7,686 bases of DNA from a virus. Taxonomy: Duplodnaviria > Heunggongvirae > Uroviricota > Caudoviricetes. Of this stretch, positions 1 to 7,686 are shown one piece after another; positions within the stretch are counted from its first letter, which is position 1; every line of letters begins with the position of its first letter. Location: IMG/VR virus record IMGVR_UViG_2541047934_000011; one strand, written 5' to 3'. Below the pieces are notes generated by a model, which worked only from the letters and a program-made list of their open reading frames with translations, did not search any database and was not told the origin of the DNA. Both the position numbers and the translations under genes were made by a program.

Positions 1-91
1 TAGACTGGCCCCCTGAATCTCCAGACAACCAGTATCACTTATTTAAGTGATAGTCTTAATACTAGTTTTTAGACTAGTCATTGGAGAGCAG

Positions 92-457
92 ATGATTGAT
101 GTCTTAGGACCGGAGAAACGCAGACGGCGTACCACACAGGAAAAGATCGCAATTGTTCAGCAGAGCTTTGAACCGGGGATGACGGTCTCCCTCGTTGCCC
201 GGCAACATGGTGTAGCAGCCAGCCAGTTATTTCTCTGGCGTAAGCAATACCAGGAAGGAAGTCTTACTGCTGTCGCCGCCGGAGAACAGGTTGTTCCTGC
301 CTCTGAACTTGCTGCCGCCATGAAGCAGATTAAAGAACTCCAGCGCCTGCTCGGCAAGAAAACGATGGAAAATGAACTCCTCAAAGAAGCCGTTGAATAT
401 GGACGGGCAAAAAAGTGGATAGCGCACGCGCCCTTATTGCCCGGGGATGGGGAGTAA
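92..457 (+). CDS. insC: IS2 transposase OrfA (InsC), HTH DNA-binding protein, 121 aa
   Basis: ATG at 92 preceded by GGAGAG (83..88). Translation [26 protein letters not shown]...PLLPGDGE is recognised as IS2 InsC. The ORF-track start at 47 is an upstream in-frame GTG extension and is unlikely to be used. Confidence 0.9.
409..415 (+). other. Programmed -1 ribosomal frameshift slippery heptamer A_AAA_AAG joining OrfA to OrfB
   Basis: AAAAAAG sits in the insC zero frame (gca aaa aag tgg = A K K W), and insD is in the -1 frame from here. IS3-family elements including IS2 make the OrfAB transposase by -1 frameshifting at A6G. Confidence 0.75.
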
Positions 458-1320
458 GCTTAGTCAGCCGTTGTCTCCGGGTGTCGCGTGCGCAGTTGCA
501 CGTCATTCTCAGACGAACCGATGACTGGATGGATGGCCGCCGCAGTCGTCACACTGATGATACGGATGTGCTTCTCCGTATACACCATGTTATCGGAGAG
601 CTGCCCACGTATGGTTATCGTCGGGTATGGGCGCTGCTTCGCAGACAGGCAGAACTTGATGGTATGCCTGCGATCAATGCCAAACGTGTTTACCGGATCA
701 TGCGCCAGAATGCGCTGTTGCTTGAGCGAAAACCTGCTGTACCGCCATCGAAACGGGCACATACAGGCAGAGTGGCCGTGAAAGAAAGCAATCAGCGATG
801 GTGCTCTGACGGGTTCGAGTTCTGCTGTGATAACGGAGAGAGACTGCGTGTCACGTTCGCGCTGGACTGCAGTGATCGTGAGGCACTGCACTGGGCGGTC
901 ACTACCGGCGGCTTCAACAGTGAAACAGTACAGGACGTCATGCTGGGAGCGGTGGAACGCCGCTTCGGCAACGATCTTCCGTCGTCTCCAGTGGAGTGGC
1001 TGACGGATAATGGTTCATGCTACCGGGCTAATGAAACACGCCAGTTCGCCCGGATGTTGGGACTTGAACCGAAGAACACGGCGGTGCGGAGTCCGGAGAG
1101 TAACGGAATAGCAGAGAGCTTCGTGAAAACGATAAAGCGTGACTACATCAGTATCATGCCCAAACCAGACGGGTTAACGGCAGCAAAGAACCTTGCAGAG
1201 GCGTTCGAGCATTATAACGAATGGCATCCGCATAGTGCGCTGGGTTATCGCTCGCCACGGGAATATCTGCGGCAGCGGGCTTGTAATGGGTTAAGTGATA
1301 ACAGATGTCTGGAAATATAG
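415..1320 (+). CDS. insD: IS2 transposase OrfB (InsD), DDE integrase-like catalytic domain, 301 aa as annotated (expressed as an OrfAB fusion)
   Basis: Translation [21 protein letters not shown]...[24 protein letters not shown] is recognised as IS2 InsD. It is in the -1 frame relative to insC and overlaps its 3' end. Stop TAG at 1318..1320. Confidence 0.9.
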
Positions 1321-1544
1321 GGGCAAATCCATTAACACATAAGCAATCAGTATGATTGGTTAGGTGATTACTCTTACTGCGCACAGCGCAATAGATTTCT
1401 TCGTGGGCGTTACCGCCAACGAAGTTACACGAAGAAAGTAACGCTTTGCTTTCGGTGTGAGCGGAACGGGCCAGCCACGAAGCCCGAAAGGTAGCGGAGT
1501 AAGGCTGCTTGCCAGAGAGTGAAGCTAACGCCGGAAGGCAAAAG

Positions 1545-1625
1545 ATCATATATATAGATATAAAGAATATTATTATTATGATCTAATTAATAATCTAATA
1601 TAGTTTTATTAATAGTCTTATTGTA
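1545..1625. other. Near-pure A/T tract (DNA-unwinding-element-like), bracketed by the 8-bp inverted repeat AGATCATA / TATGATCT
   Basis: About 80 bp of almost exclusively A/T immediately after a GC-richer segment (1340..1545). Inverted repeat AGATCATA at about 1543..1550 and TATGATCT at about 1578..1585. No coding potential. Confidence 0.5.
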
Positions 1626-1628
1626 GTT

Positions 1629-1664
1629 CACAGTGACCTACCCCCTAGCTCACTATGACCTACC
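1629..1664 (+). repeat. Two direct copies of CAC(A/T)(G/A)TGACCTACC spaced 22 bp
   Basis: cacagtgacctacc at 1629..1642 and cactatgacctacc at 1651..1664 (12 of 14 identical). Confidence 0.8.
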
Positions 1665-1694
1665 GTTACTACCAATCATCACATAGCACTCACT

Positions 1695-2474
1695 CTGTGT
1701 AATGCCTTTCTATGTGTGTGCCATAATCCCCTATATTCCCTGTGTAAATCATAGAATATCCCTAACTTATTCCTGTGTAATTCCATACTAAAAATTCAAT
1801 GAAAAGTAGCTTAAAAGTGCAATTCTTACTTTCTTCACTTTTACATCACTTTCGCAAATCCTTGTGTAGTGCGGCCTACAGAGCACCATCAGAAATTGTT
1901 GGCTAAAAATTGTTCTGCTTGTTTCTTAACGAGTTTTCTCGTTTGTGCAAATTTTAAAATTTATTTTGTTTTTACAGCCTTATTTCGTGTAATGCGTGGC
2001 ATAGCAAGCCCTTTTCTTGTGTTGTCAAGACATTTGGCAACGTTCAAACATCTGTTTAGAAATGCCAAATTGTTGATCTAACAAATAAACCTGTATAAAC
2101 AGAACACCATTTAATCTATTCCCCTGTGTAATCCACTACATCACACAATAAAAACAAAAAAACCTTTAATTATGTTTCATAGCATACAAAAGTCAACAGA
2201 AGCCCTCTCGTGCTCCTACGTAAAAAATCCATCATTTTCCCCTGATACATCAACTCAAGGCGTTCTATGTGTTCCTTAGTGCATATTACGTTTATTATGT
2301 TAAATTGATTTTGGCCTATATTTTGACCTGCACCCGCATAAACACTGGTTTCATCGCTTACAGTCCTTGTGAGACGTGGTGCTGTTTCTAGCATCTGATC
2401 CGACATAAAACCGATCATTCTCGTGTTTAGTGAAAGTTTAGTGAGAGACATTACAGAAAGGCTTTCTGTGTAAT
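1695..2474 (+). repeat. Dispersed same-orientation motif CTGTGTAAT (5 exact copies plus close variants) in AT-rich non-coding DNA
   Basis: Exact CTGTGTAAT at 1695..1703, 1773..1781, 2124..2132 and 2466..2474, and CTGTGTAAA at 1740..1748. Variants TCGTGTAAT at 1985..1993, TATGTGTGTG at about 1711..1720 and TTGTGTAGT at about 1862..1870. All are on the + strand. A 9-mer recurring this often in under 1 kb is far above chance. Confidence 0.85.
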
Positions 2475-2610
2475 GATTTAATAGGTAAAAACGATGTTGA
2501 TTACGCAAGAAAATTCCTTGCTGATATTTGGGGATTCTGGATTTTCCAGATCGGGGGGCGCTGAAAATCGCGTTAAGCACCTCTCGCAATCTAGCCATAA
2601 GGGAAGGGAT

Positions 2611-2675
2611 ATAGGTATTTAGATGTATTTATAGCTATTTATGGCTATTTATTTTTTATTTACCTTTATTTAAAA
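2611..2675. other. Phased T-tracts with 10-bp periodicity (intrinsically curved DNA)
   Basis: ataggTATTT agatgTATTT atagcTATTT atggcTATTT attttTTATT taccTTTATT: TATTT recurs every 10 bp, i.e. helically phased A/T tracts, a signature of bent DNA at promoters or origins and of H-NS-bound DNA. Confidence 0.7.
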
Positions 2676-2741
2676 ATAACCTTATAAATCAATAAGATAC
2701 ACAACTATCTGTTTATATTTTAATCAATTAAATCAAGTTTA

Positions 2742-2780
2742 ATACCCTTAAATCACCTGAAAATACCCTTAAATACCCCA
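2742..2780 (+). repeat. Direct repeats ATACCCTTAAAT with 21-bp spacing, plus a third partial copy ATACCCCA (iteron-like)
   Basis: ATACCCTTAAAT at 2742..2753 and 2763..2774 (exact, 21 bp apart), then ATACCCCA at 2773..2780. Confidence 0.8.
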
Positions 2781-2942
2781 ATAATTAATTTTAAGGTTTT
2801 CCGTGTTCTCTTCTGCATTATGAAAATGCAAAATAAGGCACAAAACAAGCGCACAGACGCATTAAACACACATCACCTATACATCCCTATACCAAGCAAT
2901 GAAAATAGCGTTAGAATGCGTCCTGTTGCGTTCTGGAGATTT

Positions 2943-3101
2943 TCAGAAATCCTCTCTAAGCCATTTCAACTCATTAAGGAGTTTTCTTTCTTCGTTCTCT
3001 CTCTGTTTACGCTCTAGCCAGGCTTTTCCTTCTGGCGTAGACAGGAACTTACGAGCGTGAATCTTGCGGTTATTACGTTTGATAGCTGCAATGTTTTTCA
3101 T
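2943..3101 (-). CDS. Small basic hypothetical protein, 52 aa (not in the supplied ORF track)
   Basis: Minus-strand ATG at 3101..3099 preceded by AGAGG with 6-nt spacing (...atacAGAGGcacacgATG). Translation MKNIAAIKRNNRKIHARKFLSTPEGKAWLERKQRENEERKLLNELKWLREDF, stop TGA at 2945..2943. Lys/Arg-rich, no hydrophobic segment. It overlaps the +-strand ORF 2820..3017, which has no RBS. Confidence 0.4.
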   Translation of the reverse strand: MKNIAAIKRNNRKIHARKFLSTPEGKAWLERKQRENEERKLLNELKWLREDF

Positions 3102-3923
3102 CGTGTGCCTCTGTATTCATATGAAAATTAACAAGTTACATACTACACAGGGAGACTACGCATAAAACACAATACAAGTAAAGATACATTTTCAAGACAA
3201 TAGGAGCCATAAAGCGCCTTTGATGGGCTACCCCAAAAAATAAGCGCCGTAGGCGTATCCACTAAAAGGGCTTTTTCACAAAAGCTATGAAGTCTTAGCA
3301 GTTCTTCTCTTATCAGGCACCCGTTGTACTCCGGTGGACGAAACCGTGCTAGAGCTTGATTCTTTCCCGATCAAGTTAGGTTTTGAAGAGGTGGGCTTTG
3401 ATCCACTATTGCACTTAAAACTCTTCCCATCATTTAGCCTGTTTATCCTCTGCAACGTCTCACGACGTGTAGCATCATTGGACACCGCGCCAGGTGTGGA
3501 ACATCTTGCTAAGAGTTTTGGTAGAAGGTTTAGAGACGGTGGCACGTCTTCCAGCTTCAAAGGAACTTGTTACGAGGTTGAGCCTGGGAACTACTCGCCC
3601 ATACGTGTTACACTACCAAAGCCCATAACAACGTATAGGCGTTTGTAAGTGATAACAGAAGATACAATTTCTTAGAGAAGTTAAGCTAAGTTATTGATTT
3701 TCTTGATTGTGCGATAATAGGAACAATACACATAGGCGATAAGCTTTGTTTTTGTTGCCTTTTTTATTGTTCATTTTTTATAGATACCCCCAAAAGTACC
3801 CCCATATCTTTTTCCGCCCCTGAAATTTGGTTGTTATTCATACAGCATATCAGGCGGTAACGCTCTCCCTTTAACCCACTTATTGTATGATAGTGCTATC
3901 CCACAATAAGGAATCAGCCAGCC

Positions 3924-4283
3924 ATGAGAATGACCAGCCGCAAAAAAGAGATACTTAGCTACTTTGAACCGGATAACCTCGAATGGGTGACTGGTGAGAT
4001 TGGTGCGCCGCCGTTCGATGTGTCGGGTGTGGCCTACCTGCTTCATGGCATGGTGTCGTTCGATAAGCGTCACCAGCTCGAATCAACCCGGCGCACACTG
4101 GAAAGCATGGTTGCTGGTGGACTGCTTGAGCGGGTGACAGTGTATGAATCGCGCCAGATACGGCGCGGCGGTGATACTAACGCAACGGTCGTGCGCTACG
4201 GTTTACCCGGTCAGTGCGCTGTTATGCGCGATACTGGCGGCGCTGACAACGCAATATCAGGTGAATACATGCGGGTCAGTTAA
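3924..4283 (+). CDS. Hypothetical protein, 119 aa (possible small winged-helix-like DNA-binding protein)
   Basis: ATG at 3924 with AAGGA about 11 nt upstream. GC-richer, E. coli-like codon usage. Translation MRMTSRKKEILSYFEPDNLEWVTGEIG... is not recognised as a known family. The 3' end overlaps the convergent pRiA4b-ORF3-like gene by 8 bp. Confidence 0.5.
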   Translation: MRMTSRKKEILSYFEPDNLEWVTGEIGAPPFDVSGVAYLLHGMVSFDKRHQLESTRRTLESMVAGGLLERVTVYESRQIRRGGDTNATVVRYGLPGQCAVMRDTGGADNAISGEYMRVS

Positions 4284-4818
4284 TAGCCTGCAATCTGTCG
4301 TTGATGCGGCTCAGGTCGTAAACCCGGCGTTCAATATCCAGCATCAGGAAATTGTGGATCTCGGCCTGCTCAGGATTATCAGACTCTCTGGCCTGTAATA
4401 GCAATTCATTGTAACCATGCAAGCCGCCTGAGTTTTCCGCCGGGGTGGTGCCTTTCCCACGCAGGCAGCTAATGGGCTGATTACTCGTATCGTGTGTTTG
4501 CTTCTCCAGCACAATGACGCAATCCCACCAGTCGCCAAAGTCATACGTGTAAACCAGCTTGTCACCCTCATTCTGGAGCGCCGCCCATAGTGGCGTGATT
4601 GCCGCGTTACCCATGCTTTCATCCTCACCCCATACGCGATACTCGCTACCTGGATCACCTTTACGCCCTTTCTCGAACATATACAGGTGTTCGTCATTCC
4701 AGCCAAAAGCTAACTGGATCACGGCATGAAGTTTACTAAAGGGGATTTGCTCTGGAACCAGCACACGCCGCCATATAGGTGGTTTGCTGTCTCGGATGGT
4801 TATCTTTAGCTGGTACAT
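4276..4818 (-). CDS. Plasmid pRiA4b ORF-3-like family protein (Pfam PRiA4_ORF3 / MM3350-like domain), 180 aa, function unknown
   Basis: N-terminus MYQLKITIRDSKPPIWRRVLVPEQIPFSKLHAVIQLAFGWNDEHLYMF carries the signature of the pRiA4b ORF-3-like family (Y.LK.TL.D..PPIWRR..VP...F..LH..IQ...GW...HL..F). ATG at 4818, weak SD (AGGA 8 nt upstream). Confidence 0.8.
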   Translation of the reverse strand: MYQLKITIRDSKPPIWRRVLVPEQIPFSKLHAVIQLAFGWNDEHLYMFEKGRKGDPGSEYRVWGEDESMGNAAITPLWAALQNEGDKLVYTYDFGDWWDCVIVLEKQTHDTSNQPISCLRGKGTTPAENSGGLHGYNELLLQARESDNPEQAEIHNFLMLDIERRVYDLSRINDRLQAIN

Positions 4819-5350: not shown

Positions 5351-5373
5351 TGCTACGCGCGCGCGTACTTGTC
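5351..5373 (+). repeat. Repeat family copy a: TGCTA(CG)5TACTTGTC, containing the 14-bp palindrome TACGCGCGCGCGTA
   Basis: tgctacgcgcgcgcgtacttgtc, followed by CCGAAATACCAG. Near-identical to copy b at 6761..6781 apart from one extra CG unit. Lies in the intergenic region downstream of the PerC-like gene. Confidence 0.85.
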
Positions 5374-5395
5374 CCGAAATACCAGAAACCGCCAG

Positions 5396-5421: not shown

Positions 5422-5703
5422 CTACCTTTGCCTCTTGCCGCCATTTAACCGGAAGGCGTTACCGTTCGGTTGCGCTATCCCCATGCGGTGTTGCGTTTCG
5501 GTAACAGCTTTATGCAGGTCGCCAAATTCCTCAACCTTCACGGGCGGGCGCTTCACGTTCTCCAGACACGTTTCACGGCGGCGCTTTATCCATTCCCGAT
5601 CATCGTCCTCGGTGCATAACAGCATGACTTCCATCCATCGTGCGGCAGCTCTCCGGTATAGCCCTTTTGACTCCAGCTCTTCAGCTTTCCTGTCCCTTAT
5701 CAT
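5422..5703 (-). CDS. PerC-family (Pch-like) transcriptional regulator, 93 aa
   Basis: ATG at 5703..5701 with strong SD GAGAGG (5714..5709). Translation MIRDRKAEELESKGLYRRAAARWMEVM...REWIKRRRETCLE... carries the conserved PerC-family core (AE.LE.KGL.RRAA.RW..VM) recalled from EPEC PerC and EHEC Pch proteins. Confidence 0.75.
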   Translation of the reverse strand: MIRDRKAEELESKGLYRRAAARWMEVMLLCTEDDDREWIKRRRETCLENVKRPPVKVEEFGDLHKAVTETQHRMGIAQPNGNAFRLNGGKRQR

Positions 5704-5722: not shown

Positions 5723-5739
5723 TAGATAAGCAAAAAGGT

Positions 5740-5784
5740 GTTGGTTCAGTTGGTTCAGTTGGTTCAGTTGGTTCAGTTGGTTCA
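5740..5784 (+). repeat. Five perfect head-to-tail copies of the 9-bp unit GTTGGTTCA (iteron- or operator-like array)
   Basis: Exact tandem units at 5740..5748, 5749..5757, 5758..5766, 5767..5775 and 5776..5784, followed by a 43-bp AT-rich spacer. Confidence 0.95.
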
Positions 5785-5827
5785 ATTTGTAAAGATTGTT
5801 GTTTTTATTGTGTTTTTTCTGAAATAT

Positions 5828-5878
5828 TGAACCAACATCAACTCATTTTGAACCAACACAGCCCAGCTCTGAACCAAC
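5828..5878 (-). repeat. Three inverted-orientation copies of the same unit (TGAACCAAC on the + strand) phased exactly 21 bp apart
   Basis: TGAACCAACA at 5828, 5849 and 5870. Each begins a 21-bp unit (tgaaccaacatcaactcattt / tgaaccaacacagcccagctc / tgaaccaacaacacagcgata), so copies sit two helical turns apart on the same DNA face. Confidence 0.95.
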
Positions 5879-5931
5879 AACACAGCGATAGATTTGTGAT
5901 TGGTCCGTTATTTTCTGGCTGATATTTGAGC

Positions 5932-6760: not shown

Positions 6761-6781
6761 TGCTACGCGCGCGTACTTGTC
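6761..6781 (+). repeat. Repeat family copy b: TGCTA(CG)4TACTTGTC, containing the 12-bp palindrome TACGCGCGCGTA
   Basis: tgctacgcgcgcgtacttgtc, followed by GCAAAATATCAG. Matches copy a over about 35 bp with one fewer CG unit and a few substitutions. Lies 24 bp downstream of the XhlA-like stop. Confidence 0.85.
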
Positions 6782-6998
6782 GCAAAATATCAGGCAAAGG
6801 CCAGATTCAGAAAGTCGTGATAACCACCAGCACAACATGAGAGGTCATGTAACGCGATTTATCACACCAGATACATGTGATTGGTGTACCCGCATAAAAC
6901 ATCGTCATAGCGCGTCCTGTGCGCATATACGCCGATAATCAACACATCACCACCACTCTGTCTCATGTAGAGAACAGTTTTATGGTATCCCCCGCCAT

Positions 6999-7148
6999 CG
7001 TGTGCGTACTGGTCGGACGCAGTTGCAAAAAATTTTGCAACTGATACCCCTCGCGCGCGTACTGGTCACGAAATTGGTGTTTTGCTGTGGCAGTGATATC
7101 AGAAAAATCTTCCTGTTTCACATAAAGCGGATATGCGCGTACTGTAAC
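6999..7148 (+). promoter_or_regulatory. Repeat and palindrome cluster upstream of the 7259 gene: three more family copies plus an operator-like palindrome
   Basis: GTGTGCGTACTGGTC at 6999..7013; palindrome AGTTGCAAAA-aa-TTTTGCAACT at 7021..7042; TCGCGCGCGTACTGGTCACGAAAT at 7051..7074; TGCGCGTACTGTAAC at 7134..7148. All repeat copies are in the same orientation. Confidence 0.6.
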
Positions 7149-7258: not shown

Positions 7259-7537
7259 GTGAGCAGAAAAGATACTAAAGAATTGCTAACTATCTGCATG
7301 GTGTACTTTTCAATTTATTTTTGTGCATACATGATAGTCCCAGATGAGTTTGAACATGGCAGTATTATTTATTCCATAACATTCTATTTTTTAGAGCTAA
7401 CACCAATTTTGGCTATCCTTTTGGGAATACATATTTATTTTTCCTTAAAAAAAGAATCGACTAATTGGGAGAAGGTATGGAGAGACAGAGGATTTCTAAG
7501 GAAGGTGCGAATAAGCGGGGAAATTCTTCTCGGCTGA
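7259..7537 (+). pseudogene. Small AT-rich two-transmembrane-helix membrane protein gene interrupted by IS5 (native part 7259..7499, about 80 codons; the last 12 codons and the stop are IS5-encoded)
   Basis: GTG start at 7259 with SD AGGGGG 5 nt upstream. Two hydrophobic helices (LLTICMVYFSIYFCAYMIV and IIYSITFYFLELTPILAILLGIHIYFSL) then a charged tail. The reading frame runs across the IS5 junction at 7500, so the C-terminus ...RKVRISGEILLG is read from the IS5 terminal repeat. The original 3' end is unknown. Confidence 0.5.
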
Positions 7538-7686
7538 CTCAGTCATTTCATTTCTTCATGTTTGAGCCGATTTTTTCTCCCGTAAATGCCTTGAATCAGC
7601 CTATTTAGACCGTTTCTTCGCCATTTAAGGCGTTATCCCCAGTTTTTAGTGAGATCTCTCCCACTGACGTATCATTTGGTCCACCC
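7500..7686 (-). mobile_element. IS5, partial (first 187 bp of the element; the window ends inside it)
   Basis: GGAAGGTGCGAATAAGCGGGGAAATTCTTCTCGGCTGACTCAGTCATTTC... from 7500 matches the IS5 terminal inverted repeat and adjacent sequence as recalled. It is preceded by CTAA (7496..7499), which fits the known IS5 target preference C(T/A)A(G/A). The transposase is on the minus strand. Confidence 0.88.
7646..7686 (-). CDS. insH: IS5 transposase InsH, C-terminal fragment (5'-truncated by the window end)
   Basis: Minus-strand translation of 7684..7649 gives VDQMIRQWERSH followed by stop TAA (7648..7646). This matches the recalled InsH C-terminus ...ADQMIRQWERSH, with one A-to-V difference. Confidence 0.7.
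   Translation of the reverse strand, partial: VDQMIRQWERSH

Follow-up and report, generated by a model that had tools for sequence, protein, structure and literature searches.

The DNA analysed here, referred to as the window, is a 7,686-nucleotide stretch of the virus record IMGVR_UViG_2541047934_000011. Its part 1332-3730 is probably what remains of the right-hand side of an integrative element of ~12 kb that resembles a phage satellite, and the stretch 1332-2820, singled out in a preliminary description made from the letters of the window, likely represents about two thirds of the 2-3 kb noncoding region of this element. Judged from its sequence, this noncoding region appears to combine the replication origin of a satellite of Stephanstirmvirinae phages with a mimic of the packaging site of its helper, a reading we favour with reasonable confidence. 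The comparisons show the anatomy of the element, the covariation of Rep-like protein and iterons, the lineage-specific identity to a phage genome end and the homology of element proteins to phage structural proteins; we infer that the helper terminase cuts at the phage-like block, that these phages mobilise the element and that it is packaged from concatemers. The IS2 junction at 1332, the phage terminal-repeat end at 2522-2590 and the satellite-like element itself had escaped the preliminary description.

In strain M19, the ~12-kb element is bounded by a tyrosine integrase and tRNA-Gly and contains a gene-free region of 2.7 kb, the right part of which is homologous to the window. The complete noncoding region of M19, used as a query against 50,697 phage records, returned essentially one kind of match. 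Positions 2550-2595 of the window (46 bp, GC-rich) are 93.5% identical to 54 Justusliebigvirus genomes (E = 6e-9), and comparison of the window copy with phage phi92 showed 40 of 40 consecutive bases to be identical, together with a common upstream TGATATTTG. The left direct terminal repeat of phi92 is annotated at 1..343, and its position 343 falls inside this block (..GCGTTA/AGCACC.., with the slash at the boundary), which by homology places the phage genome end between window positions 2575 and 2576. Similarly, the right genome end of phage WPEC4 stops at ..TTCGCGTT inside the block, and the left copy continues into AGCACTTCT. Genome-end positions were taken from the deposited phage records and their annotation.

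The O104:H4-type sister lineage of the element carries a phAPEC8-type version of the block at the same place. This version matches 65 phages with ~81% identity over 83 bp, and in the phages with deposited ends the match lies 273-357 bp from the genome end. A four-way alignment revealed a frame of TGATATTTG, ~45 bases and TTCGCGTTAA, in which the middles are lineage-specific and common to each satellite/phage pair. The phi92-type block is present in 427 E. coli genomes, with at least 95% identity in 413 of these, and the phAPEC8-type block in 257; inside each type the block is nearly invariant, and one chimera keeps the frame. The left half of this chimera (L025 7550-7630) is of the phi92 type and its right half of the phAPEC8 type, with the junction at GCGCTGA. 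The block thus shows identity to the helper terminus, and the copied site is the place where the helper genome is cut, according to the deposited ends.

A module boundary lies exactly at TGATATTTG, and the module 2522-2837 that starts here also includes the phased TATTTA tract. The DNA upstream of TGATATTTG takes one of two forms, a serine recombinase gene or, as in the window, a noncoding stretch of 380 bp, and both end in a hairpin. A second piece of 22 bp with one mismatch, located in the left arm and missing from the window, is colinear with noncoding DNA upstream of the right repeat of phi92. The helically phased T-tracts noted earlier at 2611..2675 were recovered as six TATTTA units with a spacing of 10-11 bp, and the 21-bp-spaced repeats noted at 2742..2780 correspond to ATACCCTTAAAT. 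The TATTTA tract may, as its phasing suggests, form an intrinsic bend that aids terminase binding.

The physical genome end falls inside the block in two phage genera, as it would for a terminase cut site, and the block contains no sigma-70 promoter-like match; moreover, the PLE satellites of Vibrio cholerae copy helper packaging sites beside their origin (10.1101/2024.04.22.590561). We therefore regard it as unlikely that the block is some other helper-responsive site, which binds a phage replication or transcription protein, senses infection or recruits the replisome, even though the evidence consists of conservation and of the position at the terminal-repeat end rather than of cleavage, the block lies ~900 bp from the origin and a mimic of the left terminal-repeat boundary is missing from the element.

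Two further observations concern the phage side. Before its right terminal repeat, phi92 contains a gene-free, repeat-dense stretch of ~1.1 kb with ATGATAATCATT-type and ATAATCTATC repeats (147.2-148.27 kb; L004 1560-2670), so that the helper genome end, too, is a long noncoding region. Five unverified records named 'Campylobacter phage' (MG065639, MG065645, MG065656, MG065689 and MG065650), which are classified as or match Justusliebigvirus, carry the E. coli phage block; their hosts are probably mislabelled.

The second part of the proposed arrangement is a predicted Rep-dependent origin, for which 1332-1667 is the likely location and which is orphaned in the window because the Rep gene is gone. 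The segment 1332-1545, earlier described as ~210 bp of GC-richer DNA, indeed has a GC content of 50% and forms the hairpin-rich left side of this origin (module M1), with fold z-scores of -3.7 on the + strand and -3.1 on the - strand (-3.85 and -3.6 for the O104-type version). The boxes GCGCACAGCGCAA and TGTGAGCGG in M1 are common to a second, otherwise different sequence type. Inside the types, variation in the hairpin cluster was too low for a covariation signal. M1 is followed by the A/T tract of ~80 bp, which was confirmed with a GC content of 12.5%; however, the 8-bp inverted repeat said to bracket it, AGATCATA (1543) and TATGATCT (1577), encloses 26 bp. An AT-rich tract is present at this position in every variant, even where the sequence differs.

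In all variants the AT tract is followed by iterons, which belong to three unrelated types: type A (TAGCTCACTATGACCTACCCCC) in the window and M19, type B (GGAACTCATTTCCTAGGT) in O104 and O6:H16, and type C (TTGATAGGGGTATCA) in ATCC 8739. The two 14-bp direct repeats of the preliminary description are the type-A iterons of the window. Their 22-bp spacing (1624/1646) was correct, but they agree at 12 of 14 positions only, and the exact core common to both is the 9-mer TGACCTACC. The window has two imperfect type-A copies versus 4-5 copies in M19 and relatives. The N-terminal ~100 residues of the Rep-like protein likewise fall into three types, which match the three iteron types, and the C-terminus is common to the A and C proteins. 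Iteron type thus covaries with the N-terminal (DNA-binding) domain of the nearby Rep-like protein, which fits an origin. Comparison of this protein with PHROG detected replication-initiator, O-like and DnaD-like families (E = 8e-10 to 2e-4); in Pfam it matched HTH_36 only, at threshold, with no match to RepA_N. Among the parts of an iteron origin, the AT tract and the tandem repeats were found here, a cognate nearby initiator was found in the relatives, and a DnaA or IHF consensus was not detected. The suggestion that the stretch looks like a replication origin consequently holds for 1546-1667, on the basis of the AT tract, the iterons and the Rep covariation.

The homology of the element to the same phages extends to structural proteins. 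A 237-aa (amino acid) Dit-like protein of the element is 60% identical to phi92 gp135 (E = 1e-91), and the alignment of a 610-aa protein to the phi92 tape measure gp134 covers the full length, with 26% identity overall and 53% at the N-terminus. A 342-aa capsid-like protein shows 22% identity over 348 aa to the product of a gene of the Justusliebigvirus phage A150, which we estimate, from coordinates and without direct comparison, to be the counterpart of the gene for phi92 gp124, an HK97-fold protein. Strand and order of the three genes are as in the phage. On the DNA level the structural genes are 71-86% identical in patches, well below the conservation of the block. A resolvase/invertase of phi92, gp053, is only distantly similar to the serine recombinase of the element (32% over 81 aa). 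This small, invertase-type recombinase is located directly upstream of the phage-like block in many variants (L015 4640-5179, L008 12652-13203, L007 12988-13527).

A search with the 1489-bp stretch 1332-2820 revealed homologous sequences in 752 of 5426 complete E. coli genomes (about one in seven). No annotated features lie under the listed E. coli matches, and 887 of the 888 matched places are chromosomal. In plasmid records only a 142-bp piece matched, in two records, and this piece is the universal core described below. In a scan of the genome collection, the core was restricted to Escherichia and two bins of metagenome-assembled genomes, which are probably contaminated. A conjugative oriT or a partition centromere, also suggested earlier, has only the overall appearance of the phased repeats and bent DNA in its favour and is extremely improbable in view of the chromosomal location and the two plasmid records; neither a relaxase or coupling protein nor ParA/ParB is annotated or was detected in any intact element.

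The homologs sit inside 9-12 kb elements, which are bounded by an integrase and by tRNA-Thr, tRNA-Gly or a duplicated thiM thiamine pyrophosphate (TPP) riboswitch. The same element type as in M19 is found at tRNA-Thr in O26, O104:H4 and O6:H16 strains, and in ATCC 8739 (L007 9463-17983) the element lies inside the duplicated thiM TPP riboswitch. Here, a GmrSD restriction nuclease and a helix-turn-helix protein replace the capsid and tail homologs, and the Rep, small-protein and noncoding module is kept. This conserved module comprises the 230-aa Rep-like protein, a 55-aa and a 62-aa protein and the long noncoding region. Scans of the M19 element with Pfam and PHROG identified the integrase and the Dit-like, tape-measure-like, capsid-like and Rep-like proteins only, and the small proteins obtained no assignment. 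The O104-type element has a second gene-free gap of ~1 kb between the capsid-side and Rep-side gene clusters (L008 7668-8659, L010 7675-8659).

The copy of the element in the window has been truncated by IS2. The right end of IS2 at 1331 is the junction that truncates the noncoding region, and 1332 is the edge of an insertion/deletion; intact relatives continue through ...GAGAGTTAACACATAAGC... without IS2 at the junction. The loci L030 and L026, both without IS2, are 99.7-99.96% identical to the window from 1332 onward and carry left-arm-type sequence upstream at the expected distance. Compared with M19, ~6.4 kb were lost via IS2 in the lineage of the window, from the 5' part of the 610-aa gene to the middle of the noncoding region. 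The remnant has no Rep gene, capsid homolog, small genes or left arm. Because of the IS2 truncation and the loss of the Rep gene, the window copy is very likely inactive unless complemented in trans. The neighbourhood to IS2, noted in the preliminary description, is accidental: IS2 split a pre-existing noncoding region. The ORFs (open reading frames) of 70 and 142 aa in the stretch, judged to be chance ORFs, bear out this assessment, with no Pfam or PHROG match, a 1-bp indel in the 142-aa ORF and lengths that vary among relatives.

The truncation of the window copy, the other insertion sequences flanking it and a region without ORFs might point to decaying prophage junk, in which the block and the structural homologs are leftovers or relics of a phi92-like ancestor. 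This is very unlikely to be the explanation. Intact syntenic elements with open genes occupy several attachment sites in hundreds of genomes, their modules are highly identical wherever present and reshuffled at fixed breakpoints, and the block is 93-100% identical to phages, whereas drift has left the coding homologs with a protein identity of 22-60%. Moreover, two lineages match two different phage genera.

Comparison of 33 loci revealed that the noncoding region is a modular mosaic, the breakpoints of which are fixed at window positions 1590, 1646, 1769, 1910, 2138, 2522, 2837 and 2948; the modules are 90-100% identical wherever they are present. The universal core (1769-1910) is the sole nearly universal module and shows long invariant runs across 23 distinct sequences; it gave no fold signal, promoter match or database match. 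The place of the variable spacer M6 is taken by an invertase-type serine recombinase gene in many relatives. A degraded recombinase pseudogene in M6 (2139-2521) was rejected, as tblastn gave no signal.

The motif CTGTGTAAT, of which the preliminary description had counted at least five exact copies plus variants in one orientation, occurs exactly four times, at 1695, 1773, 2124 and 2466. Orientation and variants were as described: all exact copies are on the + strand, a copy with one mismatch starts at 1740 and looser ones at 1863 and 1985. Four copies compare with 0.06 expected, and none of 200 shuffles matched this number. In the three relatives with an uninterrupted noncoding region, GTG(T/C)AAT preceded by two pyrimidines is found on the + strand right of the origin and on the - strand left of it, so that these pyrimidine-led motifs always lie on the strand running 5' to 3' away from the origin. 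Not all copies with a purine in the two preceding positions obey this strand rule, as GAGTGTAAT is on the + strand of the left arm in M19 and ATCC 8739. For diverging forks, the strand away from the origin would serve as the lagging-strand template; for divergent transcripts, it would be the sense strand. The CTGTGTAAT-type motif is common to all Rep/iteron types, which implies a conserved factor, namely the 62-aa protein or a host or helper factor.

Several assignments of these motifs were tried and rejected. In phi92 1-50 kb, CTGTGTAAT occurs 22 times against 18 expected, and it shows no enrichment in a whole Justusliebigvirus genome either; it is therefore no helper promoter. Likewise, CTTAAATACC and T4-late-like motifs are not enriched in helper genomes. 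A late promoter of the form 'CTAAATAcCcc' was not borne out, since the rV5 paper gives TggTAaAAtA. A sigma-70 -10 element was discarded for CTGTGTAAT, as no -35 matches and promoter-like sites are below chance (3 sigma-70-like sites in the region versus 6.9 expected). For want of a fold signal, structured RNA was rejected for the universal core, for the right arm and for 3190-3660, and an Rfam 15 scan detected no match in 1332-3730 at E <= 1.

These results also bear on the possibility that 1668-2520 is mostly a leader or noncoding-RNA locus, which produces divergent, C-rich, unstructured transcripts silenced by Rho/H-NS until infection, with CTGTGTAAT as RNA or promoter elements. On both arms, pyrimidines prevail on the strand that leads away from the centre, the GC skew changes sign near 1550, and folding of the right arm is at best equal to that of shuffles (z up to +2.4), as expected for Rho-loading RNA; abundant noncoding transcripts are known from PLE and its helper ICP1 (PMC7567579). 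Nevertheless, we consider such a locus improbable, given the lack of an Rfam match and of a covariation or fold signal, the low number of sigma-70-like promoters and the missing enrichment of CTGTGTAAT in helper genomes. Silencing by H-NS, another earlier suggestion, does not conflict with the satellite reading.

According to the satellite reading, the element would excise upon infection by a matching phage. Its Rep-like protein would bind the iterons, with a replisome probably borrowed from the infecting phage, and the helper terminase would cut element concatemers at the copied repeat end (2522-2590) and then package them; the phased TATTTA tract after the block is perhaps part of the packaging signal. 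For the left terminal-repeat boundary of the phage, no significant counterpart was detected in the element, where local and chained alignments did not exceed shuffles, and AGCAC in the universal core was rejected as a left-boundary mimic, as it is not invariant. Terminally redundant or recircularisable DNA would therefore have to come from the packaging of multimers.

The missing left boundary is one of several points that weigh against this reading. No portal, terminase or TerS homologs were recognised in the element by the Pfam and PHROG scans. Viral collections and metagenome contigs contained no circular form and no contig ending at the phage-like block. About 1 kb (1668-2521) has no assigned function, the window itself has just two imperfect iterons and no Rep gene, and the surroundings of the AT tract show no DnaA or IHF consensus. 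All results come from computational sequence analysis. Sites for host factors are not obligatory for helper-dependent origins. Judged by their identifiers, the matches in viral collections look like prophage calls from isolate genomes. The metagenome contigs L052 (13,247 bp) and L057 (12,583 bp) span the element almost exactly from attachment (att) site to att site, without circularity by terminal overlap; this pattern, which arises when an assembly breaks where a mobile or excised element ends, is suggestive only. Nothing relevant emerged from literature searches for satellites in connection with phi92, Justusliebigvirus, Stephanstirmvirinae, Phapecoctavirus, rV5, phAPEC8 or Vequintavirus.

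Table 1. Features of the IS2 and satellite-like part of the window
Feature	Position	Strand	Basis and remarks
IS2	1..1331	+	100% identical to annotated IS2 of strain SCU-172 (L001)
Module M1, hairpin-rich segment, 50% GC, left side of putative origin	1332..1545		Fold z-scores; 97-100% identity in 15 loci
AT-rich tract, candidate DNA-unwinding element	1546..1625		12.5% GC
Two type-A iterons, 22-bp unit TAGCTCACTATGACCTACCCCC	1624..1667	+	Units start at 1624 and 1646; imperfect copies
Start of right arm, pyrimidine-rich on + strand	1668..1768	+	Motif copies at 1695, 1740
Universal core	1769..1910	+	Bounded by CCTGTGTAATTCC (1772) and CCTTGTGTAGTGCGG (1861); in 29/33 loci
Module M5, right arm	1911..2138	+	Motif copies at 1985 (TCGTGTAAT) and 2124; breakpoints 1910, 2138
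Variable spacer M6	2139..2521		Ends in hairpin GCAAGAAAATTCCTTGC (2505-2521)
Copy of direct-terminal-repeat end of phi92-type phages; candidate packaging/cleavage site	2522..2590	+	Homology to phage genome end
Six TATTTA units	2611..2675		At 2616-2672; spacings 10, 10, 10, 11, 10 bp
Two ATACCCTTAAAT repeats, 21 bp apart	2742..2783	+	Starts at 2742 and 2763; in module 2522-2837
Conserved 52-aa ORF of the element	2943..3101	-	Hypothetical in annotation of relatives; no family match
Conserved noncoding end of the element	3196..3730		97-100% identity in 19-20 loci; diverged version in M19

The conserved end of the element is followed by different DNA. An att-like, degenerate copy of the tRNA-Thr 3' end is located at about 3713-3730, with a different island beyond it, and in L008 the counterpart of the conserved noncoding end adjoins tRNA-Thr. 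The ~500 bp of noncoding DNA beside this attachment site (3196-3712) are longer than a typical att arm and contain no conserved ORF, Rfam match or RNA fold signal. ORFs of 91/92 aa at 3285-3560 were rejected as a conserved gene, as only 17 of 37 residues align.

The window segment 3731-7496 is a second, unrelated island, arranged in tandem after the att-like junction. Its ORFs encode a 119-aa protein, a pRiA4b ORF-3 family protein (4276-4818, - strand), a PerC-family regulator (5422-5703, - strand) and several small products. At 5731-5880, GTTGGTTCA is repeated five times with a 9-bp spacing (5740-5784), followed by four inverted copies of GAACCAAC across an AT-rich gap; this segment looks like the origin of the second island. 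Two Rfam MIR5998 matches at 5739-5879 fall on these iterons and are spurious. A 28-nt repeat, CGCGCGCGTACTTGTC(N)C(N)AAAT.., is found between and inside small ORFs of the island at 5358-5385, 6766-6793 and 7052-7079, and also at 6995-7014. The end of an IS5-family (ISKpn26-like) element at 7496-7686 is 100% identical to the L008 copy, and the window is thus bracketed by IS2 and IS5.

The window copy is probably a dead remnant, and its interest lies in the family that it reveals. We give roughly even weight to the broader proposal of a widespread, undescribed family of E. coli satellites that parasitises lytic phages of ~150 kb of the phi92 and phAPEC8 types. Its noncoding region would be a replication-and-packaging hub with a swappable Rep/iteron origin, a repeat-end copy and CTGTGTAAT arrays as fork-oriented signals, e.g. 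sites for priming or loading on the lagging-strand template. If this is true, a parasite of phi92-/phAPEC8-type phages comparable to PLE resides in ~12-14% of sequenced E. coli, among them O26 and O104:H4 pathogens; these phages have a broad host range and have repeatedly been isolated as candidates for therapy and biocontrol. The elements could then weaken such phages, transfer cargo, of which the GmrSD defence gene of ATCC 8739 is an example, and account for unexplained gaps in host range. The lineage-specific repeat-end copies also point to the undefined packaging recognition site of Stephanstirmvirinae, and for annotation, a block of 2-3 kb that is blank in hundreds of genomes gains a provisional meaning.

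Detailed knowledge of satellites of strictly lytic phages comes mainly from Vibrio PLE. The noncoding region of PLE, of ~3 kb, holds the origin (PMC7567579), its RepA and iterons were shown experimentally to be exchanged as a module (PMC8263062), and a mimic of the ICP1 pac site beside the origin is required for transduction (bioRxiv 10.1101/2024.04.22.590561). The element resembles PLE in its gene-free region, which is flanked by a minus-strand gene cluster and holds the putative origin (PMC7567579), in the joint swapping of the Rep N-terminal domain and iterons (PMC8263062) and in a short copy of a helper packaging site (10.1101/2024.04.22.590561), with a large lytic myovirus as the proposed helper, as ICP1 is for PLE. 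In contrast, the two show no sequence homology, and the integrase of the element is a tyrosine recombinase, whereas that of PLE is a large serine recombinase. PLE RepA is a RepA_N protein; the Rep-like protein of the element matches HTH_36 and the O-like and DnaD-like families. The element mimics a direct-terminal-repeat end, with 40 identical bases, compared with a headful pac site and 14 bases in PLE, and it additionally has homologs of the helper tape measure, gp135 and capsid protein. The PLE gene set was not found, and the large noncoding region with origin and pac mimic is shared as architecture only.

P4 and PICI/SaPI carry the packaging recognition sequence of their helper and are packaged by the helper terminase (10.1101/2024.04.22.590561), a mimicry to which that proposed here is similar, as for P4 cos. 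In contrast to the present element, P4 and PICI have temperate cos or pac phages as helpers. Pfam and PHROG scans of the M19 element detected neither the P4 hallmarks (alpha primase, sid, psu, delta) nor those of PICI (alpA, pri-rep, terS/ppi/rpp), although distant homologs among the small proteins are possible, and the same scans did not find the cfPICI hallmarks portal, protease, terS and HNH. With the iteron origins of plasmids, phage lambda and PICIs, the element shares an AT-rich tract beside tandem repeats of 17-22 bp and a nearby initiator; it differs from them in having no DnaA/IHF consensus and in being embedded in a far longer conserved noncoding region with polar motif arrays. Plasmids with a T7 origin and a T7 concatemer junction were reportedly packaged as concatemers during infection, in work of Chung and Hinkle from 1990. 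The combination of an origin and a terminal-repeat junction on a small replicon corresponds to the mechanism proposed here, except that those plasmids were artificial and contained the whole junction, whereas the element recognisably copies the right repeat boundary only. By its hallmark genes the element is thus placed outside the PLE, PICI, cfPICI and P4-like families, yet, by analogy, its noncoding region would function like that of PLE.

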